DNA of 64,000 nucleotides. Origin: Candidatus Aegiribacteria sp. Its GTDB lineage: Bacteria > Planctomycetota > Phycisphaerae > Sedimentisphaerales > Anaerobacaceae. Where the stretch lies: positions 2,532 through 66,531 of the forward strand of contig JAIVYN010000001.1 of assembly GCA_048635425.1 (NCBI GenBank), written 5' to 3'. This document shows, piece by piece, positions 3,105 to 55,765 of this stretch. A model generated the notes under the pieces. The model did not search any database and was not told the DNA's origin. It saw nothing but the letters and a program-made list of their open reading frames with translations. The first letter of the stretch is position 1, and the number at the start of each line of letters is the position of its first letter. The translations under genes were made by a program, and so were the position numbers.

Positions 3105-3539
3105 ATGAAGCTATCGACTCGGACCAGATATGGTATAAGGGCCATATTAGAATTGGCAATGAGCGGCAATAAAGGCCCTTTGCAGTTGAAAATCATTGCT
3201 CAGAGGCAGGATATATCTGTTAAATATCTCGAACAATTGATGGTTGTTCTCAAGGCAGCGGGATTTGTCAGAAGTATCAGGGGGGCCAAAGGCGGTTATA
3301 TGCTTGCCAAAGCGCCGAATCAGATTGAGCTTATTGACGTTTTATATTGCCTGGAGGGCACCGTAACTACTGTCGAATGTGTTGAAAACAAGGATTACTG
3401 TGTTCGGGCCGCTGACTGTGCGGCCAGAGACCTCTGGGTGAAGGTGCAGAATGCGATTGAAGATGTCCTGAAATCTATGACGCTCCAGGATTTGGTCAAC
3501 GGGACAAAAGGAGACAAAACGTTAAATTATCAAATATAG
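3105..3539 (+). CDS. Rrf2-family transcriptional regulator with three clustered Cys (Fe-S capable, IscR/NsrR-like)
   Basis: MKLSTRTRYGIRAILELA... is a typical Rrf2 winged-helix N-terminus. The C-terminal part carries ECVENKDYCVRAADCA (C-x7-C-x5-C). Confidence 0.85.
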   Translation: MKLSTRTRYGIRAILELAMSGNKGPLQLKIIAQRQDISVKYLEQLMVVLKAAGFVRSIRGAKGGYMLAKAPNQIELIDVLYCLEGTVTTVECVENKDYCVRAADCAARDLWVKVQNAIEDVLKSMTLQDLVNGTKGDKTLNYQI

Positions 3540-3560: not shown

Positions 3561-4481
3561 ATGAACGCGATATTTGAAGATATCACGGCTGTGGTTGGCT
3601 TTACACCCTTGGTGCAGCTCAACAAGCTTGGCTCTGGCAAAGCGACTATTCTGGCCAAGCTCGAGTCTAAAAATCCCTGTGGAAGTGTGAAAGACAGGAT
3701 TGCCCTGTCGATGATAAGGTCTGCAGAAGAACAGGGACTGATAACCAAAGACACGGTCGTTATTGAGCCGACCAGCGGCAACACTGGCATAGGCCTTGCC
3801 TTCATCTGTGCAGCAAGAGGCCATCGATTGATATTGATTATGCCGGAGTCGATGAGCATAGAGAGAAGGAAGATATTAAAGCTGTTCGGCGCCGAGCTCG
3901 TACTCACGCCCCCGGAGCTGGGCATGGTCGGTGCGATTGAAAAGGCCGAAGAGCTTGTTTCCCAGAATCCAAATTCATTTATGCCGCAGCAATTCAAAAA
4001 CCCTGCAAACCCGCAAATACACAGGGAGACCACCGCAAAGGAGATTTGGATTGACACTGACGGAAAGGTTGACATTCTTGTCGCTGGAGTCGGTACCGGC
4101 GGGACCCTCACCGGCTGTGGCGAGGTTTTGAAGGAGAAAAATAAAGACCTGAAAGTCGTGGCGGTGGAGCCGAAAGATTCACCGATACTTTCCGGCGGCA
4201 AACCGGGCCCACATAAAATACAGGGTATAGGGGCGGGATTTGTGCCGGACGTTCTGAACGTTGGCATCATCGATGAGATTATCCAGGTCTCTAATCAAGA
4301 CGCTATTGAGACAGCACGCCGGCTGGCGCTGAAGGAAGGTATTCTTTCGGGTATAAGTGGCGGTGCAAATGTGTGGGCTGCGATACAGCTTTCGCAAAGC
4401 CGGGAAAATGAAGGTAAAGTCATAGTTACCTTTATCTGCGACACCGGTGAAAGATATATATCCACCGAAATGTTTGGGTAA
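3561..4481 (+). CDS. cysK: Cysteine synthase A (O-acetylserine sulfhydrylase)
   Basis: 306 aa. PLP-lysine motif GSVKDR, TSGNTG loop and GVGTGGT loop are present. Confidence 0.9.
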
Positions 4482-5445: not shown

Positions 5446-6380
5446 AACATACGAGATATAAGATGGATGAGCGTTTACTTGGAAAAATAAGAAAGTTAAA
5501 GGATGACCGTAAAGCGGTAATACTTGCCCACAACTATCAGCCCGGCGAGATACAGGACCTTGCTGATTTTACCGGTGATTCTTTGGGTTTGAGTATAAAG
5601 GCGGCCGAAACTGATGCTGATGTAATCGTCTTTTGTGGTGTACAATTTATGGCCGAAACCGCCTCTATTTTGTCACCGGAAAAGACCGTTCTTCTGCCGG
5701 ACAAATCCGCCGGCTGCCCAATGGCTGATATGATAACTGCAGAACAATTACGCCAACTGAAGAAGGAATATCCTGATGCCCTGGTAGTCTGTTATGTGAA
5801 TAGTTCCGCAGAGGTCAAGGCCGACAGCGATTACTGTTGTACAAGTGCTAATGCGGTTGAAGTGGTAAACTCTTTGCCGAAGGATAGTCGAATTATCTTT
5901 GTGCCGGACCAGCATCTTGGTCGGTTTGCTGCTGAAAGAACCGGCCGAGACCTTGTGCTCTGGCCCGGTTATTGTCACGTACATGTGGTGATAACCGAGG
6001 ATGATATTAGGACTGCAAGGGCGAAATACCCGGATGCGATTGTAATGGCGCACCCGGAATGCACTGAGCCGGTCAAGGAACTATCAGACGAGATGCTTAG
6101 CACCAGCCAGATGCTCAAGTTTGCTGCCAGAAGCACAGCGAAACGGTTTATAATAGCCACCGAGATAGGAATAATTCATACCTTGAAGAAAGAGAATCCT
6201 AACGCTCAATTTATCGCAGCCAGCGAAAGGGCTATCTGTCCCAATATGAAAAAGATCACCATGGAGAAGATTGTCTGGGCACTTGAAGATATGCAATACA
6301 AAATATCTGTACCCAAAGCAATAAGGGAAAAGGCGAAAAAGGCCCTGGACAAAATGGTGGAGATTCTACCAGCGAGATAA
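5442..6380 (+). CDS. nadA: Quinolinate synthase
   Basis: 312 aa. VILAHNYQ, FCGVQFMAETA and CPNMK motifs of NadA are present. It overlaps the cysE stop by 4 nt. Confidence 0.9.
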   Translation: MKHTRYKMDERLLGKIRKLKDDRKAVILAHNYQPGEIQDLADFTGDSLGLSIKAAETDADVIVFCGVQFMAETASILSPEKTVLLPDKSAGCPMADMITAEQLRQLKKEYPDALVVCYVNSSAEVKADSDYCCTSANAVEVVNSLPKDSRIIFVPDQHLGRFAAERTGRDLVLWPGYCHVHVVITEDDIRTARAKYPDAIVMAHPECTEPVKELSDEMLSTSQMLKFAARSTAKRFIIATEIGIIHTLKKENPNAQFIAASERAICPNMKKITMEKIVWALEDMQYKISVPKAIREKAKKALDKMVEILPAR

Positions 6381-6382: not shown

Positions 6383-8185
6383 ATGATAGAGGTTGGAAAA
6401 AATTCTGTTGGTCTTGTGCAGACGAAGGTGATACGCGTCGTTGAAGCCCGGCAGCCCCTGGAGCTGGAGTGCGGCAAGACGTTAGCTCCTATTGATGTGG
6501 CCTATGAGACATACGGCGAGCTTAACGAGGCCGGGGATAATGCTGTTTTGATTTGCCATGCCCTTAGCGGCAACGCTCACGTGGCTGGTGTAAACAATCC
6601 TGATGACCGAAAGCCCGGCTGGTGGGATGTTATGGTAGGTCCCGGCAAGAGAATTGATACGAATAAGTATTTTGTTATCTGCTCGAATTTTCTCGGCGGC
6701 TGCGGCGGGACGACGGGGCCGTCTTCGATTAACCCGTCAACAGGCAAGCCATACGGCCTGGACTTTCCGATTATCACCATAGCTGATATGGTCAAGGTCC
6801 AAAAGGTCTTGCTCGGTAAGCTCGGCATAAAAGAGCTCTTGGCGGTGATTGGCGGTTCGATAGGGGGGATGCAGGTCTTGCAGTGGGCGATTGAGTATCC
6901 TGACTTTGTCAAAGCTGCCATACCGGCTGCCACAACCACGCACCTCGGAGCTCAATCGATTGCGTTTGATGCGGTGGGCCGAAACGCCATACTGGCAGAC
7001 CCAAATTTTGAAGGCGGGCAATACACCGACGAAAAAGGCCCGGACAGAGGTCTGGCAATTGCCAGGATGATTGGGCACATAACGTATCTGTCAGAACAGG
7101 GTATGCGCGAAAAGTTTGGACGAAAGTTGCGAAATGCTGACAGCTACAGGTACGATTTCAACTCTGAATTTGCCGTTGAGACATACCTGGACTATCAGGG
7201 CCAAAGCTTTGTGGAGAGATTCGACTCCAATAGTTATCTTTATATAACCAGAGCTGCGGATTATTTCGACCTGGAAAAAGATTACGGGTCTCTAAAGAAT
7301 GCCTTTGCAAATACCAAATGCAGATTCCTGGTAATTAGCTTTGCAAGCGATTGGCTCTTCACGCCCGCTCAATCCAGAGCAATAGTCAATGCGCTCGTTG
7401 CTAATGACAAAGACGTTAGTTATTGCGATATTGCCTCGCCATACGGCCACGATGCATTTTTATTGGAACCGGAAATACTTGGCTCTTTTATTTCCGGCTT
7501 TTTAGATGCTACGCATCAGCCGGGGGAGAAAAAAGACCATAAGAACAAAATAGGACATGACCATAAGCAAATACACGATTTCGGACAAGCTAACCGAATC
7601 CGAGTTGACTATGATGTGATTGAATCACTGATAGAGCCAAACAGTACAGTTCTGGACATCGGCTGCGGCGACGGGGAGCTATTGGCAAATCTTATAGCCG
7701 ACAAGAACATAACAGGTAAAGGTATCGAGCTTGACCAGGACCTTGTCCTAACTTGTGTAAATAGGGGACTGTCGATTATACAGCACGATATAGAACATGG
7801 GTTAGAAAACTACGCTGACAAAAGCTATGATTATGTAATACTGTCGCAAACGGTGCAAACGGTGAAGAATCCTGAAGGTGTATTTGCCGAATTGCTGCGG
7901 GTGGCTCAGAAGGTGATTGTGAGCTTTCCCAACTTTGCTCATTGGCGGTGCAGAGCACAGTTGTTTTTTGGGGGAAATGCCCCTGTAACCAAGCAACTGC
8001 CCTTTGAGTGGCACAACTCTCCGAATATACATTGTCTGTCACTAAAGGATTTCGAACGATTCTGCAAAAGACTGAGCGTTAAGGTAGAAAAAAAGATTCC
8101 GTTGATTAAGACTCGTCTTAGCCCGGTAAGATTCGCACCAAATCTGTTTGCCGAGCAGGTAATCTACGTCACAGGTGGAGAATGA
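6383..8185 (+). CDS. metX: Homoserine O-acetyltransferase MetX fused in frame to MetW
   Basis: 600 aa. Residues ~1-380 form the alpha/beta hydrolase MetX (GGSIGGMQ nucleophile elbow, GHDAFLLE). Residues ~400-600 are MetW-like (RVDYDVIESLIEPNSTVLDIGCGDGELL SAM-fold motif). Confidence 0.85.
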   Translation: MIEVGKNSVGLVQTKVIRVVEARQPLELECGKTLAPIDVAYETYGELNEAGDNAVLICHALSGNAHVAGVNNPDDRKPGWWDVMVGPGKRIDTNKYFVICSNFLGGCGGTTGPSSINPSTGKPYGLDFPIITIADMVKVQKVLLGKLGIKELLAVIGGSIGGMQVLQWAIEYPDFVKAAIPAATTTHLGAQSIAFDAVGRNAILADPNFEGGQYTDEKGPDRGLAIARMIGHITYLSEQGMREKFGRKLRNADSYRYDFNSEFAVETYLDYQGQSFVERFDSNSYLYITRAADYFDLEKDYGSLKNAFANTKCRFLVISFASDWLFTPAQSRAIVNALVANDKDVSYCDIASPYGHDAFLLEPEILGSFISGFLDATHQPGEKKDHKNKIGHDHKQIHDFGQANRIRVDYDVIESLIEPNSTVLDIGCGDGELLANLIADKNITGKGIELDQDLVLTCVNRGLSIIQHDIEHGLENYADKSYDYVILSQTVQTVKNPEGVFAELLRVAQKVIVSFPNFAHWRCRAQLFFGGNAPVTKQLPFEWHNSPNIHCLSLKDFERFCKRLSVKVEKKIPLIKTRLSPVRFAPNLFAEQVIYVTGGE

Positions 8186-9515: not shown

Positions 9516-10397
9516 ATGTGGGAGTACACGGATAAATTAAAAGACCATTTTTTTAATCCACGCAACGTCGGCGAAATAGAGAACCCGGACGGCGTCGGGG
9601 AGGTCGGCTCCTTAGCCTGTGGCGATGCCCTGAAGCTGATGTTCAAACTCGATGCCAATGGCAGAATCATCGATGCGAAGTTCAAGACCTTTGGCTGTGC
9701 AAGTGCAATCGCAACATCATCGGTACTGACCGAAATGATAAAAGGTTTGACTCTGGACGAGGCTACGAAAGTAACCAACAAAGATATCGCCGAATATCTG
9801 GGTGGTCTGCCCGAACAAAAGATGCACTGCTCGGTTATGGGCAGAGAAGCCCTTGAGGCGGCAATTGAAAACTACCAAAGCGGCGGAAAGGAAAAACATG
9901 AGCTTGAAGGTAATGTTATCTGCACCTGTTTTGGCGTAACCGACAAGGAAATCGAAAGAGTAATACGTGAGAACAATCTAACGATGGTTGAAGAGGTTAC
10001 GAATTACTGCAAGGCGGGCGGCGGCTGCGGAGGGTGCCAGGGCGAAATTGAAAAAATGATAGAAAAGATACAGCCGGATGAAATAAAACAGGCCCCTATA
10101 ACAGTAGCTCGACGAGCAGGCAAACTTACCAATATTCAAAAGATTCAGTTAATCCAGCAGACAATAAATGAGCAAATCAGGCCGGCCCTGCGGGCGCACG
10201 GTGGAAATATCGAGCTAATAGATGTTGAAGGAAATAAGGTTGTCGTCGCATTCAGGGGAATGTGCGCACAGTGCAGACTGGCCGAGCTTACGATGAAGGA
10301 TGTCGTCGAAGCCAAACTAAAAGAATTCGTTTCCGAGCAGCTTTTTGTCGAAGAAGACAAAGAATCTGCAAAGCAGCCGCACAATCACAGGGAATAA
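9516..10397 (+). CDS. nifU: NifU Fe-S cluster scaffold (three-domain form)
   Basis: IscU-like N-domain (GSLACGD, FGCASAIA, MHCS). Central BFD-like 2Fe-2S domain (CTCFGVTD...CGGCQ). C-terminal NifU domain (CAQC). Confidence 0.9.
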   Translation: MWEYTDKLKDHFFNPRNVGEIENPDGVGEVGSLACGDALKLMFKLDANGRIIDAKFKTFGCASAIATSSVLTEMIKGLTLDEATKVTNKDIAEYLGGLPEQKMHCSVMGREALEAAIENYQSGGKEKHELEGNVICTCFGVTDKEIERVIRENNLTMVEEVTNYCKAGGGCGGCQGEIEKMIEKIQPDEIKQAPITVARRAGKLTNIQKIQLIQQTINEQIRPALRAHGGNIELIDVEGNKVVVAFRGMCAQCRLAELTMKDVVEAKLKEFVSEQLFVEEDKESAKQPHNHRE

Positions 10398-10400
10398 GTA

Positions 10401-11558
10401 ATGAAGACCATATATTTTGATAACAACGCCACGACAAAAGTATCTGAACAGGTGCTCGAAGAAATGAAGCCGTTGTTTTGTGAGCTTTACGGCAATCCTT
10501 CGAGTATGCACACGTTTGGCGGACAGATGGGCCGCAGAGTCCGTCAGGCACGCGAGCAGGTGGCCGGCCTGCTTGGTTGTGAGCCGAGCGAGGTTATATT
10601 TACCAGCGGCGGCACTGAAAGTGACAACACCGCTATCAAAGGTACCTTGGCTGCGCTGCCGCACAAACGCAAAATCATAACTACCAGAGTTGAGCATCCT
10701 GCTGTGTTGACCGTTTGCCGTGAGCTTGAAAATCGCGGCTACACCGTTGTGGAATTGCCAGTGGACAAACAGGGTCGGCTTGACCTTGCGGAGCTGGAAG
10801 AGCAAATCGATGATGATACCGCTTTGGTTACGATAATGTATGCAAACAATGAGACCGGTGTGGTATTTCCAATTGATAAAATCGCCGAATTAGTTGCCGA
10901 TAGGGGGGTTATATTTCACACCGATGCAGTACAGGCGATTGGCAAGATACCGCTGAACCTCTCGAAGAGCAATATCGATTTGCTCAGTCTCTCCGGCCAT
11001 AAGCTGCACGCCCCGAAGGGCGTAGGCGTTTTGTACGTCCGCAAGGGGACACGGCTGTCGCCGTTTATGTTGGGCGGCCATCAGGAAGCAGGCAGAAGGG
11101 CCGGCACCGAAAATGTACCAGGTATCGTCGGCTTAGGAAAAGCGTGCGAATTGGCTGCTGATAACTTCGAGCAGGAGAACAGCAAAGTAAAATACCTCCG
11201 TGATAAGCTTGAGAAAGCAATACTGGAAAAGTGCCCTGACTCCCGGCTCAACGGCGACAAGGAAAATCGCCTGCCAAATACGACTAATATCAGCTTCGAG
11301 TATATTGAGGGCGAGGCGATTCTGCTTATGCTTGATAAATACGGCATTTGCGCCAGCAGCGGCTCAGCCTGCACCTCCGGCTCACTCGAACCCAGCCACG
11401 TATTACGCGCGATGGGCGTACCCTTTACCGCCGCCCACGGCTCAATTCGGTTCAGCTTAAGCAGATACAACACAGAGGAAGAGGTCGATTACACCATCGA
11501 AAAAATGCCCGGGATTGTAAACCAGCTCCGCAAACTCTCACCTTTTGTAGCAAAATAG
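10401..11558 (+). CDS. nifS: Cysteine desulfurase NifS
   Basis: 385 aa. SGHKLHAPKGVG (PLP lysine) and SSGSACTSG (catalytic Cys loop). It starts 3 nt after nifU. Confidence 0.9.
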   Translation: MKTIYFDNNATTKVSEQVLEEMKPLFCELYGNPSSMHTFGGQMGRRVRQAREQVAGLLGCEPSEVIFTSGGTESDNTAIKGTLAALPHKRKIITTRVEHPAVLTVCRELENRGYTVVELPVDKQGRLDLAELEEQIDDDTALVTIMYANNETGVVFPIDKIAELVADRGVIFHTDAVQAIGKIPLNLSKSNIDLLSLSGHKLHAPKGVGVLYVRKGTRLSPFMLGGHQEAGRRAGTENVPGIVGLGKACELAADNFEQENSKVKYLRDKLEKAILEKCPDSRLNGDKENRLPNTTNISFEYIEGEAILLMLDKYGICASSGSACTSGSLEPSHVLRAMGVPFTAAHGSIRFSLSRYNTEEEVDYTIEKMPGIVNQLRKLSPFVAK

Positions 11559-11580
11559 TTCCACACGGTGTAATTTTGCG

Positions 11581-11608
11581 CAATACGATATACGCAATAC
11601 GCATCACG
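11581..11608. repeat. Heptamer tandem tract, ATACG family (4 units)
   Basis: CAATACG ATATACG CAATACG CATCACG, read directly. It lies between the nifS stop and the tRNA-Leu 3' end. Confidence 0.7.
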
Positions 11609-11614
11609 AATAAC

Positions 11615-11698
11615 TGCCGGAGGTGGGACTCGAACCCACACCCTGTTGCCAGGACGGGATTTTGAATCCCGCGCGTCTGCCAATTCCGCCACTCCGGC
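11615..11698 (-). tRNA. tRNA-Leu (anticodon CAA)
   Basis: Reverse complement: GCCGGAGTGGCGGAATTGGCAGACGCGCGGGATTCAAAATCCCGTCCTGGCAACAGGGTGTGGGTTCGAGTCCCACCTCCGGCA. It folds as a cloverleaf with a long variable arm and anticodon loop TTCAAAA. No encoded CCA. Confidence 0.9.
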
Positions 11699-11708
11699 CC
11701 TTCTAATT

Positions 11709-11778
11709 TACTATTTGCTATTTACTATTGAAGTGATGATGTTAAATAATAAATAGTCAATAGTCAATAGCCAATAAT
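11709..11778. repeat. Two inverted heptamer tracts (TACTATT x3 and AATAGTC/CAATAGT x5)
   Basis: 11709-11729 reads TACTATT TGCTATT TACTATT. 11744-11778 reads AAATAAT AAATAGT CAATAGT CAATAGC CAATAAT. The units are reverse complements, so the arms could form an imperfect hairpin. Confidence 0.7.
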
Positions 11779-11845
11779 TATAATGTCTTCCGGTGTGGCA
11801 GCAACATCTATGTGGGCGGATTCTACTGCTTTTGGTTGAAGGTTC

Positions 11846-12220
11846 CTATCCTTCCTTCCAGTACCGCTGCACAATACCGTCTTTTATCTCGAAGGAAACG
11901 CTGTGGTCTGTTTCCTTATCATCGACAATGATTATCGGAAACAGAACAAAGGCGTTGTCCTTTTTCATTATGCATCTGTACTTGAGGATCTCGGTCCCGT
12001 CTTCCGTCAAACGTTCTTCGGTGGGTTCACCAAGTGCCGCCACAAGCCAGTCCTTTGTCGTCTCGCCGCATTCGATCTGCCTGAGTGTCTGGTTTCCGAT
12101 AGGCCTATCTCTGCCGGTGTAGTGTTCGTCCGTCTTGCTGATAACACATCCGACAAGCAGAACTGACGTCACGGCCAGCAACGCAAAAAGAGCGATTTCG
12201 TTGTGCTTATACAGTTTCAT
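11846..12220 (-). CDS. Small lipoprotein, BamE/SmpA-OmlA-like (paralog 1)
   Basis: 124 aa. Signal peptide with lipobox LLVGC. LRQIECGETTKDWLVAALGEPT resembles the BamE-fold motif. AGGAGAAG sits upstream of the ATG. Confidence 0.55.
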   Translation of the reverse strand: MKLYKHNEIALFALLAVTSVLLVGCVISKTDEHYTGRDRPIGNQTLRQIECGETTKDWLVAALGEPTEERLTEDGTEILKYRCIMKKDNAFVLFPIIIVDDKETDHSVSFEIKDGIVQRYWKEG

Positions 12221-12320
12221 TTCTCACTTCTCCTAAATCAGCTCGCATTTAGCTCCTGCCACTTCGTTTATTTCGTATTTATTTCCCTAATCTCCCCATA
12301 TACTTATCTACGCACCCACT

Positions 12321-12351
12321 CATCAACATTCATCAATCATCAATAATCAAT
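12321..12351. repeat. Heptamer tandem tract, CATCAAT family
   Basis: CATCAAC att CATCAAT CATCAAT AATCAAT, between the two lipoprotein paralogs. Confidence 0.6.
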
Positions 12352-12359
12352 TAGAGTTG

Positions 12360-12728
12360 CTATCTTTCCTTCCAGTGCCGCTGCACAATACCGTCTTTGA
12401 GCTTAAACACAACGGTGTGTTCTATTTCCTTTGTATCTTCGATAGCGATGGGTGGCGGGAACATGGCAAATCTGTTGTCCTTTTTCTCTATGCATTTGTA
12501 CCTGAGGATCTCGCTCCCGTCTTCCGTCATACTTTCTTCGGTCGGCTCACCGACTATCGCCAAAAGCTGGTCTCTTGTCGTCCTGCCGGATTTTATCTGC
12601 CTTAGCTGCGAATTTTCAACGCCGCTGTAGTGCACATCACTTTGAGTGGCAACGCAGCCGGCAAGCAGAACCGACGTCACGCCCAGTGACACAAAAAGAG
12701 CAATTTCATTAAATTTATAATGTTTCAT
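12360..12728 (-). CDS. Small lipoprotein, BamE/SmpA-OmlA-like (paralog 2)
   Basis: 122 aa, lipobox LLAGC. It aligns along its whole length with 11846-12220 (roughly half the residues identical by eye). The RBS region is conserved (GATTTAGGAGAAG[TC]GAGAAATG). Confidence 0.55.
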   Translation of the reverse strand: MKHYKFNEIALFVSLGVTSVLLAGCVATQSDVHYSGVENSQLRQIKSGRTTRDQLLAIVGEPTEESMTEDGSEILRYKCIEKKDNRFAMFPPPIAIEDTKEIEHTVVFKLKDGIVQRHWKER

Positions 12729-12978
12729 TTCTCGCTTCTCCTAAATCAGTTGATATTTCCACGGAACAATTTACAGATACTCCCACGCCTTTCAATTGCA
12801 CATAATGTCAAACGTCTCTTTCGGTGTATACATTTTACTCTATCATAAATAAGGCACGCGAAGTCCTGACAGTAACAAAAAATATCAGCCATACGCCGGA
12901 ATCATATCTGGCACGAAAACCTCACTGGAAGACGTTTTATAAAGGAACCGAGTTAAATTCAGGAATATCCCAAGCACA

Positions 12979-13821
12979 CTATCTAATTCTTATAGAGCCA
13001 TAGCCGGTCTTCAAACTCAGCTTTCCATTTCCCTCACCTATTCTTCCTTCTATTCGCTTGCTGCTTATCTTGCCCTTCACTACAATCGGCAGGTCAGTTT
13101 TTATCGAGCCGTAGTTGGTTGCAAGTTCGACTTGTCCGGTGAATCCGGGCGGTGCTGTAAAGTCAATATTGCCGTACGATGTGCTTATGTTTGTTTGTGT
13201 TTCAGCCGGTGCCAAATCCGAATATTCGATATCGATATTGCCGTAGCTTGAGCCGGCAGTTAGCTCGTCAGATATAATTTCCCTGCAATCGACACTGCCA
13301 TAGGATGTATCCACTTGGATTTGGCCGTTAATGCTGTCACAGTTAATCGAGCCATAGCGGGTGTGTGCTTTCACGTAGCCGCTGGTATCAGCTAATTCTA
13401 TCGAGCCGTATGAGCTGGCACATTCGATGTTTGTTTGTACAGGGACAGTTATTTGGTAGCTAATACTTATTGAGCGTTTATTTTTCACGTGCGGCTTGTC
13501 TGCCCTGACCGTTAGTGTCTTTCCGGCCGGCTCAAGCTGTATATTCACTTTTTCAGCAATTTCAGCGGCTTCCTCCTCAGTAGGGGCCTGCACACGAATT
13601 GTAGCGACCACACTGCAATCGGCAGTATTGGTACCACCTACTGTTATAGAGCCATAGCTTGTTTTAGCCACAACGGTAGAGCCGGATTCCAAAGGCGCCT
13701 GGAGTCTAATTGTTTTCTCGTATTTGGCCCGGGGCCAATCACCGATATGAATAACGCACCCACTGACAGCAAGCAGTAAGCATAAGCCGAGAGCTAATAC
13801 TATAGTATATTTTTTCTTCAT
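12979..13821 (-). CDS. DUF4097-like beta-strand repeat lipoprotein (paralog A)
   Basis: 280 aa, lipobox AVSGC. Eight repeats of the S/T-Y-G-S/N-I type (TSYGSITVGG ... TGYGSIRIR at the C-terminus). Confidence 0.7.
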   Translation of the reverse strand: MKKKYTIVLALGLCLLLAVSGCVIHIGDWPRAKYEKTIRLQAPLESGSTVVAKTSYGSITVGGTNTADCSVVATIRVQAPTEEEAAEIAEKVNIQLEPAGKTLTVRADKPHVKNKRSISISYQITVPVQTNIECASSYGSIELADTSGYVKAHTRYGSINCDSINGQIQVDTSYGSVDCREIISDELTAGSSYGNIDIEYSDLAPAETQTNISTSYGNIDFTAPPGFTGQVELATNYGSIKTDLPIVVKGKISSKRIEGRIGEGNGKLSLKTGYGSIRIR

Positions 13822-13922
13822 TTTTCTGTCCCCTTAATTCTATAACTTTTTCTTGTACGAATCCCTCGTTGGTTTTCTGTTTATATAAGGACCGAGTTAA
13901 ATTCAGGGATATATCAAGAATA

Positions 13923-13994
13923 TTATCTTATTCTTATAGAGCCATCGTTTGTCTTGATATACAGCCTGCCTTGTCCTGTTCCTGTTGTTCCTTT
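13923..13994 (-). pseudogene. Relic 3' end (~23 codons) of a third DUF4097 paralog
   Basis: The minus strand reads ...GTTGTGQGRLYIKTNDGSIRIR-stop. At DNA level it is close to the 3' end of 16159-17142 (TTATCTTATTCTTAT[AT]GAGCCATCGT[TC]TGTCTT[GA]ATATACAGCCTGCCTT). Its downstream flank 13887-13915 matches 12942-12970. Confidence 0.5.
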
Positions 13995-16110
13995 ATTTTC
14001 GACGGAAGGGCTCCTTAAGCCTCTTCTGCACCCATTCTTTGTTGAGTCTTATCCCATATTGGTCATGCCTCATTTCTCTCTTTACGGACTTTTTCAGAGA
14101 CTCATTGTAACATTTTAGAGCCTTGTCCCGTTGTCCGAGCAGGTCGAGAAGATGTCCCTGCCATACGATCGCCGCGAAAGCTCGCAACGGGTCGTCTTGT
14201 TCTTGGGTCTCTACTCCTCTGAAGGCCTCCAAGGCTTCTTTGTAGTACTCCCCATCGTACAACGTCAGTCCGAGCTTGAACCAGCTGCCCGGGCTCAATA
14301 GGTTTCTGTCCCGAGCCTTGTTGAAGATGTCCAGAGCCTTCTTCCCCGCCCCGACCCAGGGAAGGTTTTGTATGGCTTTAGCAAGCTCTTGTTCGCCGAG
14401 TGAAGGCGGGGGAACGACCAAGGGCAGGGCCTGGTCCGGGTCGAGCTGGACGTCTTTGAGTGGTGATAGGCTCTCGAACCGGATTGTGTCCACATCCCGG
14501 AGACGATTCGTGAAAGTTCGCTGCGTGGTGCCATCTTCAAAATGAGCCGCCACCGGCACGGGCATTTTCAAGTCACCCAGACACCGAATTTCTATCTCAG
14601 AGATATAAGCGTCACCCTTCTTTTTACATTTCTTTAAAGCAACCTTGTACGAAAGATACTTATTGGAGTTCACCCATTGATCGAAGAACCATCCCAGGTC
14701 TTCTCCACTTTCCTGCTCGCATACCGCTCGAAACTCGTGCAGGCCGAGCCTTCGCCCGGCAAACTCTTTCAGGCATCGCCGGCAGATGCGGTCAAAGAGA
14801 GCCTCGCCCAGCACGCAATCAAGGGCACTGATGATGCTGAATCCCTTACCATGAATCACGATATTATTGAAGTCGAATTTGATCTTAGACCGTTCCTCCA
14901 GCGATCTGCTGACGGTTGTGTCGAGCCCGTCCCGCACGCCTTTGATGTATCTGGCCATGAGTTCCTGATGTTTTTGGTTGCCTAAGCTTCTCTCGCGGCA
15001 GTACTCTCTGTCGGCGTAAATCCCCAGCCCGATCCACAGCCAGCCGGGTTCGTCTTTTTCTATAACATACCTGCTCCAGTATTGATGGCCGATTTCGTGG
15101 GCTGTGATCCACCGCCAGTGCAGTTCTGGTTTCTCCTCCATCCGGCCCATGCCATGGATGACTATAATGCTGGTAGCCGCAGGATAGCCTCCAGCCGGAC
15201 GGTCCATTCCTGGAAGGATCGTCAGGATGCGATAGGGATAGAATCCAAACCGTTCCCGATAAAAATTGATGACATCGACTGCCGTTTCCTGAAGCAGTTC
15301 GGCGCACTTCCTGTCCTCGGGTCTGTAGAGACAACGAACAGCTACATCTTGGGCCTGGTCTTCAAGAACCTCGTATCCCTTGCTCAAGAAAAAGCCAAAA
15401 GACGGTACCGCCTCGGCGTGATAGCAACCGGTCTGGCGGTCAAACCGACCGCTCGTGGCAACCGTATATATATCCGGGACATCAAGCTTGACTTGATAAT
15501 CATTATGGGTATCAAAGCCCCACCATAGCCGAGGCCAGCCGGTCACCGGCCCAATTTCGTTCAGTTCCTCAGGCGGGGCAGGTGTGGACAGACCGAACTC
15601 GACCTGCAGCGTCAACGACTCACCGGGTCGGACAGGCTCGGCCAACATGAAATCCTGTGGGTACGATTCCAGGGGCGTTGGCAACTTCACGGGTATGCCG
15701 TTAGCCATGATCTTCAGGGTCTGGTTCCCGTACTTAAACCATGTGATGGCAAGCGTCTGCATTGGCCTGGATGTCGTGTTAACGAAAGAAATAACTTCCT
15801 TGCCTTGCAGGACGATGTCTTCTGCCAGCTTGATGGTGCAATCTATCTTGTAGTTTGCTCGCGGCGGTTGTCTCGGAGCCCAATACCCCACCGTGGCTGC
15901 CTCAGTCTCTTGAGCCTTGGCGATACTTGTGGATACCGTCAGTGCAAGGGCAGTCAAAGTATAAACCAAATGTACAAATAACCTGGTCCTTTGAATGTCT
16001 CCCTGTCCGCTGATACCTTTATATGCTCCGCACTGCGTGTTGGATACTATGGAACGACTGAATGGTAGCGCTGTCCCACATCCTAAGTCAGTCATGTAAG
16101 TAGGTTCCAT
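13993..16110 (-). CDS. HEXXH zinc metallopeptidase (M1 / MA-clan-like) with C-terminal TPR region
   Basis: 705 aa with WITAHEIGHQYW. The canonical M1 NEG glutamate 18 residues later is not obvious (LWIGLGIY), so the subfamily is uncertain. The C-terminus is TPR-like (YYKEALEAF..., ALKCYNESL). The hydrophobic signal region starts about residue 45, so the true start may be internal. Confidence 0.6.
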   Translation of the reverse strand: MEPTYMTDLGCGTALPFSRSIVSNTQCGAYKGISGQGDIQRTRLFVHLVYTLTALALTVSTSIAKAQETEAATVGYWAPRQPPRANYKIDCTIKLAEDIVLQGKEVISFVNTTSRPMQTLAITWFKYGNQTLKIMANGIPVKLPTPLESYPQDFMLAEPVRPGESLTLQVEFGLSTPAPPEELNEIGPVTGWPRLWWGFDTHNDYQVKLDVPDIYTVATSGRFDRQTGCYHAEAVPSFGFFLSKGYEVLEDQAQDVAVRCLYRPEDRKCAELLQETAVDVINFYRERFGFYPYRILTILPGMDRPAGGYPAATSIIVIHGMGRMEEKPELHWRWITAHEIGHQYWSRYVIEKDEPGWLWIGLGIYADREYCRERSLGNQKHQELMARYIKGVRDGLDTTVSRSLEERSKIKFDFNNIVIHGKGFSIISALDCVLGEALFDRICRRCLKEFAGRRLGLHEFRAVCEQESGEDLGWFFDQWVNSNKYLSYKVALKKCKKKGDAYISEIEIRCLGDLKMPVPVAAHFEDGTTQRTFTNRLRDVDTIRFESLSPLKDVQLDPDQALPLVVPPPSLGEQELAKAIQNLPWVGAGKKALDIFNKARDRNLLSPGSWFKLGLTLYDGEYYKEALEAFRGVETQEQDDPLRAFAAIVWQGHLLDLLGQRDKALKCYNESLKKSVKREMRHDQYGIRLNKEWVQKRLKEPFRRK

Positions 16111-16158
16111 TTTTGCTTCCTTCCTTTCATGTATGACAACAGGGGAGTTTCATTGAAA

Positions 16159-17142
16159 TTATCTTATTCTTATTGAGCCATCGTCTGTCTTAATATACAG
16201 CCTGCCTTCTCCCGTTCTGATTGTTCCTTTAATTCCGCTTTTGCCTAATTTCCCCGTCACTTTTATTGGCAAATCTGTATTTATCGAGCCATCGTTCGTT
16301 ATAACTTCGACATCCGCAGAGAAGTTCGCCGGGGCAGTTAAGTCGATAGCGGCATCATCTGTAACCAACGAGATATTACAAACACCGCCGGCATCTTCAG
16401 AATATACCACTGTGATCCTTCCATCATCGCTTTGAATATTTACATCACCGCTAACCTCCTGGACCCTGGTCGAACCATCATTACTTCTGACTTTTATGTC
16501 CCCAACGACTCGTGACATGGTTACCGAACCGTCATCGGTCTGGATGTCTATCCATCCGGCCCTCTGCAAGTTTACATCACTATTAAACTCCTGGATATTG
16601 ACCGAGCCGTCATTGCTTCTGACTTTTATATCTCCAACAATTCGTGCAAGCGATACTGAACCATCATCGGTTTTTATGTCAATATCCCCATTGATGTGTT
16701 CTATCGTAATATCCCCATCATCCGTGCTAAGTTGCACATCGCAATCCTTCACTACCATCGCCTCGACCTGAATATCCACGCTTTGGTTCATCATCAATAT
16801 CGGCTTTTCAAGTTTTACCGTTAGCTTAGAGCCGAATTGTTCAAGTTTTACCTTTGTCTTTTCAGCGATTGTTCTGGCTTTTTCATCCGAATCAGCCCTG
16901 GCGATAATCGTGGCGGTGACATTGCAATCCGTAATCTCGCCGCCGTTTATAGTAATCCAGCCGTCGTTGCTCTTGGCCGCAAATAAAGAGCCGGCCGACA
17001 TTGGCTTGGATAGCTGCACCGTCCTTTCATATCTTGCCCGGGGGTAACTATATCCTCTTATTTGGATATAGCAGCCTGCAACGGAGATTAACGAGCAAAG
17101 CAAACAATACAGCAATATTCTTGTGAAGATAGCACTTTTCAT
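16159..17142 (-). CDS. DUF4097-like beta-strand repeat lipoprotein (paralog B)
   Basis: 327 aa, lipobox VAGC. About ten T/S-D/N-D-G-S-I/V repeats ending TDDGSIRIR. An internal module is duplicated (VGDIKVRSNDGS twice). Confidence 0.7.
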   Translation of the reverse strand: MKSAIFTRILLYCLLCSLISVAGCYIQIRGYSYPRARYERTVQLSKPMSAGSLFAAKSNDGWITINGGEITDCNVTATIIARADSDEKARTIAEKTKVKLEQFGSKLTVKLEKPILMMNQSVDIQVEAMVVKDCDVQLSTDDGDITIEHINGDIDIKTDDGSVSLARIVGDIKVRSNDGSVNIQEFNSDVNLQRAGWIDIQTDDGSVTMSRVVGDIKVRSNDGSTRVQEVSGDVNIQSDDGRITVVYSEDAGGVCNISLVTDDAAIDLTAPANFSADVEVITNDGSINTDLPIKVTGKLGKSGIKGTIRTGEGRLYIKTDDGSIRIR

Positions 17143-18803: not shown

Positions 18804-18900
18804 TCGTCGCTCGTATCTCGTATGTCGTATGTTGTATTGCGTAAATCAGCGGTTAAACCACCGACTACATACCACTCACCACTCACTACTCACCACTCAC
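18804..18900. repeat. Two heptamer tracts filling the proA-proB spacer (TCGTATG family, then CACTCAC family)
   Basis: 18804-18845 reads TCGTCGC TCGTATC TCGTATG TCGTATG TTGTATT GCGTAAA. 18873-18900 reads CACTCAC CACTCAC TACTCAC CACTCAC. The second tract overlaps the final proA codons (IVSGE-stop). Confidence 0.7.
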
Positions 18901-20181: not shown

Positions 20182-20238
20182 TTTTAATTTACCATTGACT
20201 ATTTATCGTTAAATACCTATATTCGATTGCCGAATTGT

Positions 20239-20266
20239 AAATAATAAATAATCAATAATCAATATC
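20239..20266. repeat. Heptamer tandem tract, AATAATC family
   Basis: AAATAAT AAATAAT CAATAAT CAATATC, upstream of proA and next to tRNA-Gly. Confidence 0.6.
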
Positions 20267-21393: not shown

Positions 21394-21464
21394 CTTGTAA
21401 TGCGTTCCGCCTAATGCGGATCTTCAATGTTAGTGTTGAGTATCGCGCTCCCATTCATCGTGGC

Positions 21465-21520
21465 GCGATACGATATACGCGATGTAAAATACGATATACG
21501 ATATATGCGATACGATAGAA
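21465..21520. repeat. Heptamer tandem tract, GATATAC family (8 units) abutting the rsmH start
   Basis: GCGATAC GATATAC GCGATGT AAAATAC GATATAC GATATAT GCGATAC GATAGAA, then the GTG start at 21521. Confidence 0.75.
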
Positions 21521-23295: not shown

Positions 23296-23321
23296 GAATG
23301 GCGGATATGAAATTAGAAGTC

Positions 23322-23569
23322 CGAAGTACGAAACAAAATCAAGTGAACTAAAGTGCCTAAAGTGAACTAAAGTGAGCTAAAGTCAACGTGGTTATCAGGT
23401 TATCATGACATCAGGTAGTGGTTATCAGGTTACCAAGATATCAGGTTAACTTTTTTTTTCCTGGTATCCTGATTTCCTGATATCCTGCAACCTGATTTCC
23501 TGATATCCATATTTTAGGCACTTTAGGCACTCTAAACTTTAGTCACTTTGATCTTGTTTCGGATTTCGA
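23322..23569. repeat. Large imperfect palindrome built from 8-10-nt words (copy 1)
   Basis: Left arm: CTAAAGTGNN words, then GGTTATCAGG-like words. Centre: T9 at 23451-23459. Right arm: CCTGATWT words, then TTTAGGCAC words. The core 23348-23530 is homologous to the reverse complement of 30428-30625. Confidence 0.75.
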
Positions 23570-23630
23570 TACGCCTGTTAGAAGCGTATGTATCCATATT
23601 CGATATTCGAATTTATATTTTAGGCGTTAT

Positions 23631-30427: not shown

Positions 30428-30625
30428 AAGGTGCCTAAAATATGCATATCAGCAAATCAGGAAATCAGGGTGCAGTCCACAGGACACCTTACGGTGGATA
30501 TCAGGGAATCCGGATACCAGCAAAAAAACAAATTTAACCTGATATCCTGGTAACCTGACAACCACTACCTGATGTCCTGATAACCGGATAACCACGCTGA
30601 CTTTAGCTCACTTTAGGCACTTTAG
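30428..30625. repeat. Large imperfect palindrome built from 8-10-nt words (copy 2, inverted on the + strand)
   Basis: The reverse complement of 30531-30625 matches 23367-23450 with 6 mismatches in 84 nt by hand alignment. The centre is A7 at 30523-30529. The terminal word overlaps the mreC stop codon. Confidence 0.75.
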
Positions 30626-31416
30626 CGCACCTCTGACGGATTCATCACGATTACGGCTACGTTCTCTGCCTTTTGTATGTTACAAACCGGTTCGACCATT
30701 ATGTCCCAAACCAAAGGTTGGACATTGTGTTCACATCGAAACACTTTTCCGATAATAATAGGTGTATCCAGGAACCCAGGTCTTTTACTGGCCATAATCT
30801 CAGTGTCGATTTTGACTTTGTGCTTTATCATTTCTACCTTGGCTAAGTTGTTGCCATTGCCTTGCATGAGCCAATCTGAGCCGCCAATTCTTACGGCTGT
30901 GCTGGATTTTGGGTCGGTAAACAGCCTAACCTTGGCGGTGCGGGCATCCACATCAGATATGGTTCCGATGACACTGTTGTCGGCCAGAACGAATTGGCCC
31001 TTAGCCAGGCCGTCATCCCGGCCGCGGTTGATGATAAGCTCGCTGCGCAGCTCGTTGATAGAGACAGTAATCACATCAGCCGGCACAAAGCCCATTCGTT
31101 CCCAGCCGGGTATGTTGCGCATTTTTGAGAGCTTTTGTACATTTTGCTGCGCATCATTACGCTGCTGCGTAACGTTGGCAAGATGGTTTAGTAGTCTTTC
31201 GTATTCATCTCGACTGACCACATCTCCAAGTTGCTGGCGTGTACCGGCCGAAAGTGAAATGTTTCTGCCAATGCTTAAGGGCCAGTTGAAAATGCGGTGA
31301 AAAGCAAACTGGAATTTATTCGTCAGATTTTTCGGAGAGAAAAGGAAAATGAACCCGGCTAACGTGAACCAGGTAAACAACATTCGTCTGGAGACTCTAA
31401 TTTGCTTCCTTGCCAT
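30622..31416 (-). CDS. mreC: Rod shape-determining protein MreC
   Basis: 264 aa with an N-terminal TM helix, a coiled coil, then beta-rich domains. It lies between mreB and mreD. Confidence 0.75.
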   Translation of the reverse strand: MARKQIRVSRRMLFTWFTLAGFIFLFSPKNLTNKFQFAFHRIFNWPLSIGRNISLSAGTRQQLGDVVSRDEYERLLNHLANVTQQRNDAQQNVQKLSKMRNIPGWERMGFVPADVITVSINELRSELIINRGRDDGLAKGQFVLADNSVIGTISDVDARTAKVRLFTDPKSSTAVRIGGSDWLMQGNGNNLAKVEMIKHKVKIDTEIMASKRPGFLDTPIIIGKVFRCEHNVQPLVWDIMVEPVCNIQKAENVAVIVMNPSEVR

Positions 31417-31419
31417 TAT

Positions 31420-31496
31420 CGTATTGCGTGTTGCGTATTTCGTATTTCGTATTGCGTATTACGCACGACGCATCAAACACGACGCACTACGAATCA
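31420..31496. repeat. Heptamer tandem tract, CGTATTK family (11 units) spanning the whole mreB-mreC spacer
   Basis: CGTATTG CGTGTTG CGTATTT CGTATTT CGTATTG CGTATTA CGCACGA CGCATCA AACACGA CGCACTA CGAATCA. It runs from the mreC start region into the mreB stop. Confidence 0.8.
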
Positions 31497-38862: not shown

Positions 38863-39489
38863 TCACGGGCTTTGTGGCTTTATTACCTTTTGTTCTTTGA
38901 ATACTTTGCCGGAGAGGTAATCGGTGAAGGTTACCTTCACTGTCAAGGGCTCGTCGAAACTTTTGACCTTGTCGGCTATACCGAATGTCAATCTGTAATT
39001 GATGGTTACCAGCGCGGCAAACCAGAGTTTTTTCAACTCGCCTGGTTCTACGTGCCACTGGCCGAGCAGGGCCTGGTTCGCCTCTGACGAATCCAGGTCC
39101 CAAAGCTGGACGTCCACGGCGCCTGTGGCCTTTATTATATCACCCTCTTCATCGATGGGCTGTATATAGACAATCAGCTTTTCCTTTGTGCCGTCATCGT
39201 CTTTATCGAAGAATCCGGTATATTTGCCAATCTCGATTTTTTCAAGGCGATAGACATTTTCACCCTTGACTTCCTCGGGTAAGCCGGAGAGGACGTGCAT
39301 TTGTTTTGTTAATTGTTTGTTTTCGGCCCTGGTCTGTTCGAGCTGGTTCTCTAACTGCTTGTTTTGCTCCGTCAAGTTTCCGATTTGCTCAACTAACGGT
39401 GTTCTTATGCTGTTTGCGTTTTCACAGCCGGCGACAACGCACAGACAGAAGATGAAAGACAGAAGACAGAAAAATCTGACTTCTGACAT
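38863..39489 (-). CDS. Lipoprotein with coiled-coil segment (unknown function)
   Basis: Start set at the ATG 39489-39487, giving MSEVRFFCLLSFIFCLCVVAGCEN (lipobox VVAGC). The upstream in-frame extension in the ORF track is a translation of the heptamer tract. Confidence 0.55.
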   Translation of the reverse strand: MSEVRFFCLLSFIFCLCVVAGCENANSIRTPLVEQIGNLTEQNKQLENQLEQTRAENKQLTKQMHVLSGLPEEVKGENVYRLEKIEIGKYTGFFDKDDDGTKEKLIVYIQPIDEEGDIIKATGAVDVQLWDLDSSEANQALLGQWHVEPGELKKLWFAALVTINYRLTFGIADKVKSFDEPLTVKVTFTDYLSGKVFKEQKVIKPQSP

Positions 39490-39550
39490 CTGACTTCTGA
39501 TTTCTGACTTCTGACATCTGACATCTGACTTCTGACATCTGACTTCTGAT
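39474..39550. repeat. Heptamer tandem tract WTCTGAC x11
   Basis: ATCTGAC TTCTGAC ATCTGAC TTCTGAT TTCTGAC TTCTGAC ATCTGAC ATCTGAC TTCTGAC ATCTGAC TTCTGAT. A related AAGACAG-type periodicity continues over 39441-39473, inside the signal-peptide codons. Confidence 0.9.
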
Positions 39551-40208: not shown

Positions 40209-40236
40209 TTTGGTTATTCCTTGTTTGTTTAAGGAT

Positions 40237-40288
40237 GGTGAGTAGTTAATTGGTGAGTGGTTAATTGACTACTCACCACTCACTACAC
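40237..40288. repeat. Inverted GGTGAGT / ACTCACC word repeats between the two clpP genes
   Basis: GGTGAGTAG (40237-40245) pairs perfectly with CTACTCACC (40270-40278). A further GGTGAGTGG / CCACTCAC pair follows. Same word family as 18873-18900. Confidence 0.6.
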
Positions 40289-40980
40289 TATTTACTGTCT
40301 TTTTTCTTTTTGTTGTTCTTCTTTTCCTTTTCTTTTTCTTCTTTTTTATCTTTGTCTTTATCTTTGTCTTCTTCCTGCAGCACCTCGTCGATAAGGCCGT
40401 ATTGTTGGGCCTCCTCGGCAGTCATATATCTGTCTCTTTCGGTTTCAGAGGCGATTTTTTCGACCGACTGGCCGGTGTGTCTTGCAAGAATTTCGTTTAT
40501 CATAGCTTTGGCTTTGAGGATTTCTTCGGCCTGGATTTTGATGTCGGACGCCTGGCCGCTAACACCACCCCAGGGTTGGTGCAGCATAACTTTGGCGTGT
40601 GGCAGGGCGTACCTTTTGCCTTTTGAGCCGGCTGACAGTATCACCGCGGCACCGGACTGGGCCCTGCCGATGCAGTAGGTCGCTACAGGAGAGCTGACGA
40701 AGCGTATCGTATCATAAATGGCCATCGTATCGTCAACGCTGCCGCCCGGGGAATTGATATACAGGCTGATTTCGTTGCTGCGCTTGAGATTGTCCAGATA
40801 TAGCATCTTCATAATGACCTCAGCGGCCCTTTCATACGATATCGCTCCTATCAGAAAAACAATCCGGTTCTCCAGCAGCATATCGTCCAGACTCATCTGG
40901 CGGTAGCGCTGGTACTGGCCGTATTGATTGTACGGCTCTATATTTCTCGCAATGTTTATTGCACGATGTTCAATAGACAT
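40288..40980 (-). CDS. clpP: ATP-dependent Clp protease proteolytic subunit (first copy) with K/E/D-rich tail
   Basis: 230 aa with GRAQSGAAV (Ser aligned), VMLHQP and RDRYMTAEEA. C-terminal tail QEEDKDKDKDKKEEKEKEKKNNKKKKDSK. Confidence 0.85.
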   Translation of the reverse strand: MSIEHRAINIARNIEPYNQYGQYQRYRQMSLDDMLLENRIVFLIGAISYERAAEVIMKMLYLDNLKRSNEISLYINSPGGSVDDTMAIYDTIRFVSSPVATYCIGRAQSGAAVILSAGSKGKRYALPHAKVMLHQPWGGVSGQASDIKIQAEEILKAKAMINEILARHTGQSVEKIASETERDRYMTAEEAQQYGLIDEVLQEEDKDKDKDKKEEKEKEKKNNKKKKDSK

Positions 40981-42716: not shown

Positions 42717-43036
42717 TTAGGTGCTCCTGAACGATTTTTTACTGTCGTAGCTCTGAAATAATAAACAAAAAAGGCATCAACCCGCCGTTTTGCTTCGCTT
42801 GCACCTGCGGTAACGCCGGTGCAGGCGCCAAAGCGAAGCAGCGGGCTTTAGCCAAGTTTTCACGATTTCCAATCCGGCTCCAATTGACCTTAGGCTCACG
42901 CCTAATTGGTGCTGGACTCAAACATATCGGCAACCAACGCCAAACTACCCGTTAGCCGGTATCTCACCGATACTATAAGGTTCCTTAAACGCTAAAGAAA
43001 CGTTTGCAGGCCCCTATCCTTGGGAAAACTCCTTAA

Positions 43037-43108: not shown

Positions 43109-43356
43109 ATATTCGTATCTCGTCGCTCGTATTTGGAGATACAGTCTAATAATTATAAGGGCTCTTATCGGCTATGCAAGGGGTTTTTTACAAAATTTTT
43201 GGTGTTTGTACCGGCGGGATCGTTGCTAACTGATGATAATCACATGCTAAAAAGCTTGGGATATTTCCTGTCTTGCCTTATACGAAACAGTCTTCTAAAA
43301 ATCTAAAAAATGAGGTTTTTTGGAAAAGATTAGATTGCGGTTGTTTTTTACAGATA

Positions 43357-48529: not shown

Positions 48530-48778
48530 CGGCAGTTCAGAATTATATAGCCAGGAAAAAATCTTCAAAAAACCCTCTATGGTTGGCAGCCTCAAAGCCG
48601 CTTGTCTCGGCGAAGGCCAAGCCGTAGCCAGGTAAGGCTTTGGGGATGGTTTGTTGACGAGTATCGAGCATCAAGTATCGAGACAGGGAAATTCTTGAAA
48701 TTCCTTTTCAAACTTCATATCATATCCTTCACAGACTGTCTTAGTGGGTAAAACTTACCCCAATTGGGTTTTTTATAA

Positions 48779-55755: not shown

Positions 55756-55765
55756 GAGAACTGAT

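Follow-up and report, generated by a model that had tools for sequence, protein, structure and literature searches.

Layered palindromic repeats in the dcw and mre operons of a Sedimentisphaerales planctomycete probably belong to a dispersed, lineage-specific repeat family

The Correia elements of Neisseria, the enterobacterial repetitive intergenic consensus sequences (ERIC, or intergenic repeat units, IRU) and the pneumococcal BOX elements are co-transcribed palindromic repeats, and possible RNase III substrates or stabilisers. In heterocystous cyanobacteria, Elhai et al. (2008; via PMC3116915) reportedly described arrays of heptamers, the STRR (short tandemly repeated repetitive) sequences, together with small dispersed repeats (SDR). 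MITEs (miniature inverted-repeat transposable elements) and palindromic repeats have been described in general terms (PMC3184786); repetitive extragenic palindromes (REPs) and the REP doublets that form hairpins (REPINs) are mobilised by RAYT or TIRYT tyrosine transposases (PMC3116915, PMC3733652), and GTAG repeats as well as many tyrosine transposases were found in a planctomycete (PMC3733652). Here we analyse a stretch of 64,000 nucleotides (the window) of Candidatus Aegiribacteria sp. (Phycisphaerae; Sedimentisphaerales; assembly GCA_048635425.1, contig JAIVYN010000001.1, positions 2,532 to 66,531), which carries a palindrome built of short repeated words (23322-23569) between the gene of a LysM protein and ftsL in the division and cell wall (dcw) operon, and a homologous copy between mreC and mreD in the mre operon. 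Both copies probably belong to a lineage-specific family of non-coding, layered palindromic repeats of Sedimentisphaerales intergenic spacers, and are passengers rather than dedicated cell-wall regulators; the element is best read as a non-autonomous REPIN- or MITE-like repeat, co-transcribed as an incidental hairpin. Full-text searches of the literature turned up no account of such repeats in Phycisphaerae.

With REPINs and GTAG-REPs (PMC3116915, PMC3733652) the element shares a non-coding, extragenic and dispersed occurrence, inverted halves that fold into a hairpin in single-stranded DNA or messenger RNA (mRNA), insertion in or beside one another with no obvious target duplication, and a GTAG-like tetranucleotide left unpaired on one arm only. 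It differs from REPs in its arms, which are 35-100 nt of tandem 8-10-nt words (REP stems: 6-13 bp), in the position of the GTAG tag, which is conserved as GGTAGTGG and non-complementary to CCTGCAY but lies inside these much longer arms and not at their end, in a copy number that is apparently in the tens and not the hundreds, and in that no RAYT was found in the ~0.65 Mb of DNA searched. Like MITEs, the elements are short, non-coding, multi-copy and dispersed, and are present or absent at orthologous sites; like Correia, ERIC and BOX elements, they are non-coding palindromic insertions of 100-300 nt, both intergenic and intra-operon, with internal units that vary as in BOX. However, unlike MITEs and Correia elements, the whole element is palindromic, and no unique DNA lies between defined terminal inverted repeats; no insertion sequence is known as its parent, and target duplication is not fixed, being weak (GATAT) and seen at one composite. 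The STRR/SDR repeats are an analogue of which the element is not a member: intergenic arrays of short words, nested palindromic modules of 21-27 nt, presence/absence variation and restriction to a single clade are common to both, whereas here the host is a planctomycete, the sequences are unrelated, and the arrays form large concentric palindromes shared with phage contigs.

The element at the dcw site (23322-23569) is a long imperfect hairpin around a T9 loop, built of words of the CTAAAGTG and GGTTATCAGG types. As RNA it folds into a single long hairpin (minimum free energy -101.2 kcal/mol, compared to -54.9 ± 4.6 kcal/mol for shuffled sequences; z -9.99), which ranks second among the structures of the whole window in a sliding 160-nt fold scan; shuffling the window gives an expected count of 0.00 for the core-word patterns. 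Scans for ungapped inverted repeats, and blastn of the window against its own complement, lacked the sensitivity for gapped palindromes and gave way to the sliding fold scan and a word-chain scan. Judged against the empty site of relatives, the inserted block comprises three concentric layers: C-words outermost (CGAAAT/TCCGAA words, a third layer beyond the two of the sequence-only reading of this DNA), then A-words, then a B core. Its parts are the following (loci outside the window are given as L numbers):

23309-23606, + strand: whole composite insertion in the LysM|ftsL spacer, 298 nt, delimited by comparison with the empty 37-nt spacer of L077/L078 ('aaatggcggatatTAGAatttatatttt'); boundaries identical in L075/L076.
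23304-23308 and 23602-23606, + strand: GATAT flanks of the composite, relative to the empty site.
23309-23341, + strand: outer layer, left; C-words (GAAAT, TCCGAAGT, CGAAAC) pairing with 23550-23570 in the fold.
23342-23387, + strand: middle layer, left; A-words CTAAAGTGNN, period 10, 4.8 copies (Tandem Repeats Finder, TRF); word run read as 23341-23387.
23388-23450, + strand: left arm of the B core; GGTTATCA words (at 23388-23448) with an internal 30-nt duplication (TRF, period 30, 2.0 copies).
23414-23421, + strand: phase-breaking motif GGTAGTGG in the left arm of the B core (GTAG at 23415-23418), conserved across loci.
23451-23459, + strand: T9 apical loop, from sequence and fold.
23460-23508, + strand: right arm of the B core; CCTGATNT words (word run 23459-23508).
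23484-23492, + strand: non-complementary motif CCTGCAACC, inside the right arm of the B core.
23509-23549, + strand: middle layer, right; TTTAGGCAC words, period 9 (TRF; word run 23513-23549).
23550-23606, + strand: outer layer, right; C-words, from comparison with the spacers of relatives.

The GATAT flanks (5 nt) may be a weak target duplication or a part of the inverted repeat. T-rich loops are found in most copies that combine A and B layers, and C-words also build unrelated palindromes at L047 and L051. A 34-nt segment of the right C-word layer (23571-23604), which has its own small hairpin (ATACGC..GCGTAT) and TTCGAT on both sides, is missing from the otherwise identical C layer of L076.

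The second copy lies 7 kb away from the first:

30431-30630, - strand: second copy in the mreC|mreD spacer, A-words and B core, without C layer; orthologous filled sites in L005, L035, L036, L038 and L039.
30470-30497, - strand: nested module CCACCGTAAGGTGTCCTGTGG(ACTGCAC), 21-28 nt, in the right arm of the mre copy.
30622-30624, - strand: stop codon TAA of mreC, supplied by the first A-word (CTAAAGTG) of the mre copy.

Pfam matches place mraZ, rsmH, the LysM protein gene and ftsI on the + strand, with a small open reading frame (ORF) lacking a Pfam match at the ftsL position, and mreB, mreC, mreD and the PBP2 gene on the - strand; the mRNA therefore carries the same strand of either copy. The stretch 23367-23459 pairs with 30524-30616 at 92% complementarity over 93 nt, the remaining arm is alignable given one insertion of ~29 nt in the mre copy, and the mre copy folds at -85.1 kcal/mol (z -5.4). 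What the sequence-only reading had described thus stands as far as anatomy goes: the words, the palindrome arms and the T9 centre, the homologous copy on the same transcript strand, and a second arm that aligns with an indel, which the nested module at 30470-30497 explains; the folding that it had proposed as a check succeeded for both copies. In filled alleles MreC ends in ...PPEVR*, with the TAA within the first A-word, and in empty alleles in ...PPE*. The two copies of the window are not mutual closest relatives, being 86% identical to each other: the orthologues L035 and L038 match the mre copy at 94% identity, and copies at other loci match the dcw copy at 92-95%; recent gene conversion or exchange between them was rejected on these values.

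The family was explored by scanning one genome per species (596 Gb) with the pattern TCAGGTTAYCANGAYATCAGGT (22-nt core), which fits three of the window's four B sub-repeats. This gave 32 loci, compared to the ~1 chance match expected from the degeneracy of the pattern (arithmetic estimate), and most of them carry a word-built palindrome of the same design (about 30 such palindromes). L003, L007 and L015 have only a one-directional array of B-words, and two matches from other phyla, L029 (no word structure) and L033 (one-directional word array), lack a complementary arm and were treated as chance. One match is in a metagenome-assembled genome (MAG) labelled Omnitrophota, and the remaining ones in MAGs labelled Sedimentisphaerales, Phycisphaerae, Planctomycetota or 'Pirellulales'; the last label is doubtful, one such MAG encoding a LysM protein 82% identical to that of the window in the same gene order, and the MAG contigs related to the window are labelled Sedimentisphaerales. 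Matches occur on six contigs of one MAG. Assemblies break at these repeats: a run of N lies exactly at the LysM|ftsL spacer of L070 (2856-2960, ENA scaffold), and the contigs L003 and L027 of one MAG end inside B-word arrays.

All copies are intergenic, and they occur in any gene context and in either orientation. Orientation was set by the conserved asymmetric motif, counting orthologous sites once and taking genes from longest-ORF calls, which are crude: of the independent loci in co-directional spacers, 12 run sense and 7 antisense (binomial test, two-sided, p about 0.36, arithmetic estimate), and further loci lie in convergent (3) or divergent (2) spacers. The 40 flanking ORFs show no excess of envelope genes; they include HypD, NfeD|NfeD, cytochrome c|b561, FGGY kinase|GntP, YggU|MatE, UDP-glucose dehydrogenase|NusG-like, TrkH|RecG, FlgN, ClpP|ClpP, RnfA/E|RnfB, a P-type ATPase, a sulfatase and ETF.

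Across genomes the B core measures ~120-145 nt, with arms of 8-nt GGTTATCA/CCTGATAT words that flank a loop which is either T-rich or a small hairpin. One arm carries ATCAGG-TAGTGG-NN-ATCAGG (the motif GGTAGTGG, with the variants GTGG, GTTG and GTCG) and the opposite arm CCTGCAY, the two being mutually non-complementary. In one sublineage the B core sits within an A palindrome (left arm CTAAAGTGNN, right arm TTTAGGCAC); each layer (A, B, C) also occurs alone elsewhere. The A layer keeps different word periods on its two arms, 10 nt and 9 nt, in host and phage (L088), and word numbers differ between orthologous copies (3 vs 2 B sub-repeats, 2 to 7 A-words). The 21-nt module CCACCGTAAGGTGTCCTGTGG has the same right-arm place in the mre copy, L012, L026, L030 and L038, is inverted in L048, has a partial match in the unrelated C-word palindrome of L051 and is also listed at L066:903. 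This module is present or absent between orthologous copies, in both orientations, and behaves like a tiny independent mobile palindrome; small GC palindromes are also nested in elements.

Idiosyncratic composites have been copied between loci: non-orthologous sites of different MAGs share the 30-nt internal duplication as well as the 21-nt module. L010 and L023, orthologous NfeD-family spacers of two MAGs, share a B element whose interior (loop and inner arms) is inverted in one relative to the other, the outcome that recombination between its arms would give, and in L021 a further palindrome is nested in the B-element loop with ATTTTTT on each side. A crude, alignment-free fold test in which arms were swapped between copies gave -36.6 kcal/mol for own arms and -37.1 kcal/mol for swapped arms (permutation p 0.71), indicating that complementarity belongs to the words of the family and not to compensation at each locus; compensatory pairing or arm covariation specific to an element was not seen in this test.

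The same two spacers were then compared in relatives. A metagenome scan with MreC yielded 35 loci, and the genomes compared are 70-92% identical to the window at four-fold sites. The mreC|mreD spacer is empty (57 nt) in L040, L041, L044, L046 and L049; holds a lone A-word palindrome, whose loop is A-rich (GTTAAAAAAACAAATAAC), in L042, L043 and L045; A-words and B core in the window, L005, L035/L036 (three B sub-repeats), L038, L039 and L048; A-words with almost no B left in L067; A-words enclosing an inner palindrome of unrelated sequence in L037 and L052 (GTCATTCTGAGC...CAGGATGAC) and in L053 (GTCATTGCGAGG...); and different word palindromes in L047 and L051. In remoter relatives this spacer is 11-15 nt long. 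The spacer states are scattered on a neighbour-joining tree of mreC, a short gene tree without support values, open to recombination and giving no event count.

The LysM|ftsL contigs of relatives, reached via LysM homologues, show the same variability: the spacer is empty (37 nt) in L077/L078, and contains C-words, A-words and a GTCATTCTGAGC element (GTCATT type) in L075/L076, other words (GGTTAATTAGTT) with a GTCATTCCCGCG element in L072-L074 and L079, and another mosaic again in L081/L082. Relatives with empty spacers keep the gene order, and their operons are intact. One genome (L042/L078) has the A layer alone at the mre site and an empty dcw site; in another (L040/L079) the mre site is empty. 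The genome behind L037/L076 carries the GTCATT-type inner palindrome at both sites, with identical junctions and diverged interiors. Layers have been gained, lost, swapped and centrally deleted at one spacer among close relatives. Further palindrome families (GTCATTCTGAGC...GAAGAATCTC...CAGGATGAC, GTCATTGCGAGG... and GTCATTCCCGCGGAAGCGGG...) sit centrally in palindromes of A-words or other words in L037, L052, L053, L075/L076, L021, L072-L074 and L079.

Rfam gave nothing at gathering score and, at permissive thresholds, a sole match to a generic long-hairpin microRNA model (39.5 bits, compared to a threshold of 211); the features expected of a cis-regulatory RNA of the Rfam type are lacking, in that there is no family, no conserved position or orientation, and no compensatory change in the arm-swap test. 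Neither spacer has sigma-70-like promoters above shuffle expectation or an intrinsic terminator, the T run being in the loop and not 3' of the stem, and blastn against plasmids gave no match. Further candidates were rejected: a terminator formed by the T-run loop, or by a small GC hairpin with a T run in the loop (such copies are 3 sense and 4 antisense in co-directional spacers, and 1 divergent); a CsrA-type sponge of GGA words (the words are paired in the hairpin and both orientations occur); and integron attC sites or partition centromeres (the elements are dispersed between housekeeping genes).

The B-core pattern had no match in viral contigs; triple A-words were present in seven IMG/VR contigs. 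L085 and L088 are the same virus, encoding small and large terminase subunits, a portal protein and two DNA methyltransferases, and have at least 7 A-word arrays spread over 12 kb, occupying nearly every spacer and all co-oriented with the genes (for example L088:2377-2479, 3125-3227, 3696-4055, 5663-5687, 7737-7830, 8035-8071 and 10396-10481). Three of the phage arrays are A-only palindromes with a loop resembling that of the host A-only palindrome, and one left/right pair of A-words encloses an 88-aa ORF. Solo arrays in one orientation occur just upstream of genes in L007, L015, L083, L084, L086, L089 and the window:

48778-48841, + strand: solo A' word array (TTTAGGCAC type), in direct order on both sides of the 14-nt GC palindrome TCCGCCGCGGCGGA, ~90 nt upstream of the ORF 48932-50416.

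Taken as passengers, the repeats would be non-autonomous DNA whose spread probably involves folded single strands and an enzyme that acts on them in trans; a RAYT/TIRYT-like HUH tyrosine transposase is our best guess for it, given that the unpaired GTAG is conserved and that target duplications are not visible at B-only copies. Elements would land preferentially in or beside existing palindromes. The dcw and mre copies may be tolerated within their operons because they have stop codons in all frames and neither promoter nor terminator; co-transcription would produce an imperfect RNA hairpin of ~100 bp, perhaps an incidental site for a double-strand-specific RNase or a stabiliser, with effects like those known from REP, ERIC and Correia elements. 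The GTAG opposite TGCA, the B-only copies lacking a target duplication and the nesting within or alongside other hairpins appear to resemble RAYT/REPIN biology (PMC3116915, PMC3733652). A bolder version, possible but rather unlikely, would make the A/B palindromes an undescribed class of strand-specific hairpin elements common to Sedimentisphaerales and their phages: long, word-built relatives of REPINs moved by an HUH tyrosine transposase that would recognise the GTAG/TGCA internal loop, inserted into the apices of existing hairpins (which would account for the concentric layers) and co-opted by phages as RNA-processing punctuation.

Several observations weigh against the passenger reading. 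No mobilising enzyme was seen: there is no transposase among the 40 flanking ORFs, and a crude search for the HUH...Y (HUH/Y1) motif of RAYTs in the ~0.65 Mb of DNA found none, a result that says little given that RAYTs are single-copy. Target duplications are not clearly visible at B-only copies, and copy number looks modest, the word-chain scan finding one extra copy in ~230 kb of flanks. Two genomes have the same inner type at their dcw and mre sites. The aligned element positions at the mre locus are more conserved (0.88-0.96) than four-fold sites (0.70-0.92), which could reflect functional constraint. The phage arrays are the strongest hint of a possible role of the A layer in expression; it is just as possible that phages simply harbour this same selfish DNA. 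The MITE-like passenger, one of three options in the sequence-only reading, is nevertheless the one favoured by the dispersal and polymorphism of the repeats, although not as a MITE in the strict sense: there are no defined terminal repeats with a parent insertion sequence and no clearly fixed target duplication, nor, for a strict REP, stems of REP length or a RAYT in the DNA searched. The statement that no ORF, transposase or obvious target-site duplication accompanies the element held for the transposase, of which none was found, and is qualified by the possible, weak GATAT duplication at the dcw site.

The same conservation would also fit a domesticated RNA punctuation, in which hairpins cleaved by a double-strand-specific RNase, or protecting upstream 3' ends, set the dosage of cistrons; the element would then be functional without being specific to the cell wall. 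REPs and bacterial interspersed mosaic elements (BIMEs), Correia elements and the RNase III sites of phage T7 set relative cistron dosage in this way. The very stable hairpins that form when either operon, dcw or mre, is transcribed in sense, the many copies inside apparent operons (NfeD|NfeD, ClpP|ClpP, Rnf), the gene-co-oriented A-type arrays in nearly every phage spacer, with the pair that brackets the 88-aa ORF, and the asymmetry of arm periods (10 vs 9 nt) kept in host and phage all argue for it; but host copies lie in both orientations (12:7), close relatives have empty sites and intact operons, unrelated palindromes can take the place of the inner core, the arms of one element pair no better than arms exchanged between elements (p 0.71) and there is no Rfam family, so that we consider this explanation unlikely. 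The arrays could also act as duplex DNA, as sites bound by a protein of the nucleoid-associated, partition or regulatory type, like plasmid centromeres or the BIMEs that bind IHF or gyrase. The phasing of the A-layer words at about one helical turn (period 10), the A/T-run centres and the solo one-orientation arrays just upstream of genes agree with such a role, which is nonetheless quite improbable: the arm periods differ and GTAG is non-complementary to TGCA, a strand-specific folded substrate fitting better, the period of the B-words is 8 nt and not helical, and no candidate protein was found.

The explanation first proposed, a dedicated, structured intercistronic RNA common to the two operons (dcw and mre) that would coordinate division and elongation through processing, stability or attenuation, started from two sense copies 7 kb apart, each in a peptidoglycan operon, and could draw on the matching composites at both sites of the L037/L076 genome. 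It is now very improbable. About 30 copies occur in unrelated contexts and in both orientations, neither the enrichment in cell-envelope operons nor the sense-only orientation that would have spoken for it was observed, and the element is not constant in the same operons of close relatives, where both spacers may be empty, or one filled (L042/L078; L040/L079), with gene order kept. Moreover, the inner part in L037/L076 is a different element, the window copies are not mutual closest relatives, no attenuator or terminator signature is present, and a shared orientation of two copies is a 1-in-2 event. An origin in place, by word slippage and template switching at hairpins in each spacer, would be suggested by the many unrelated 7-nt arrays and small word palindromes of the genome (39443-39549, 40236-40290) and by the varying word counts of orthologous copies; slippage accounts for the growth and shrinkage of copies and not for their origin at each site, and the same composite (motif order, 30-nt duplication, 21-nt module) is found at unrelated loci and genomes with 85-95% identity, which makes this origin hardly credible.

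Other repeats and structures of the window were recorded along with the family. Tandem arrays of other 7-nt words (TCTGACT, CGTATTG, AATAGTC, ACCACTC, ATACGAT) are present throughout its intergenic DNA, several beside tRNA genes (39443-39549; 40236-40290; 11579-11776; 18811-18900; 20238-20264; 21464-21517; 31410-31460; 43112-43140; 52332-52421), and two of them form word palindromes around an A run: AGACAGA|A5|TCTGACT and GGTGAGT../ACTCACC... A structured leader of ~320 nt (42717-43036, - strand) separates a tRNA gene from a 529-aa ORF, has a long GC hairpin and then a U run at its end, and is the top match of the fold scan (z -4.6), with no Rfam match. Long diverged direct repeats at 55619-57694, 11842-12758 and 12907-16237, with spacings of 1120 nt (79-90% identity), ~514 nt and 944/2236 nt, respectively, are probably tandem paralogous genes or repeated domains.

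The passenger reading of these copies removes an attractive but wrong regulatory story on the coordination of division and elongation. In its place stands what is apparently the first record of a rich nested palindromic repeat system in Phycisphaerae, partly common to phages, which breaks metagenome assemblies and whose repeats turn over within a genus-level clade, inside essential operons, where they rewrite gene ends, mreC gaining two codons and a new stop. The elements could be used as strain markers, and as a model for the spread of hairpin repeats without an obvious transposase.

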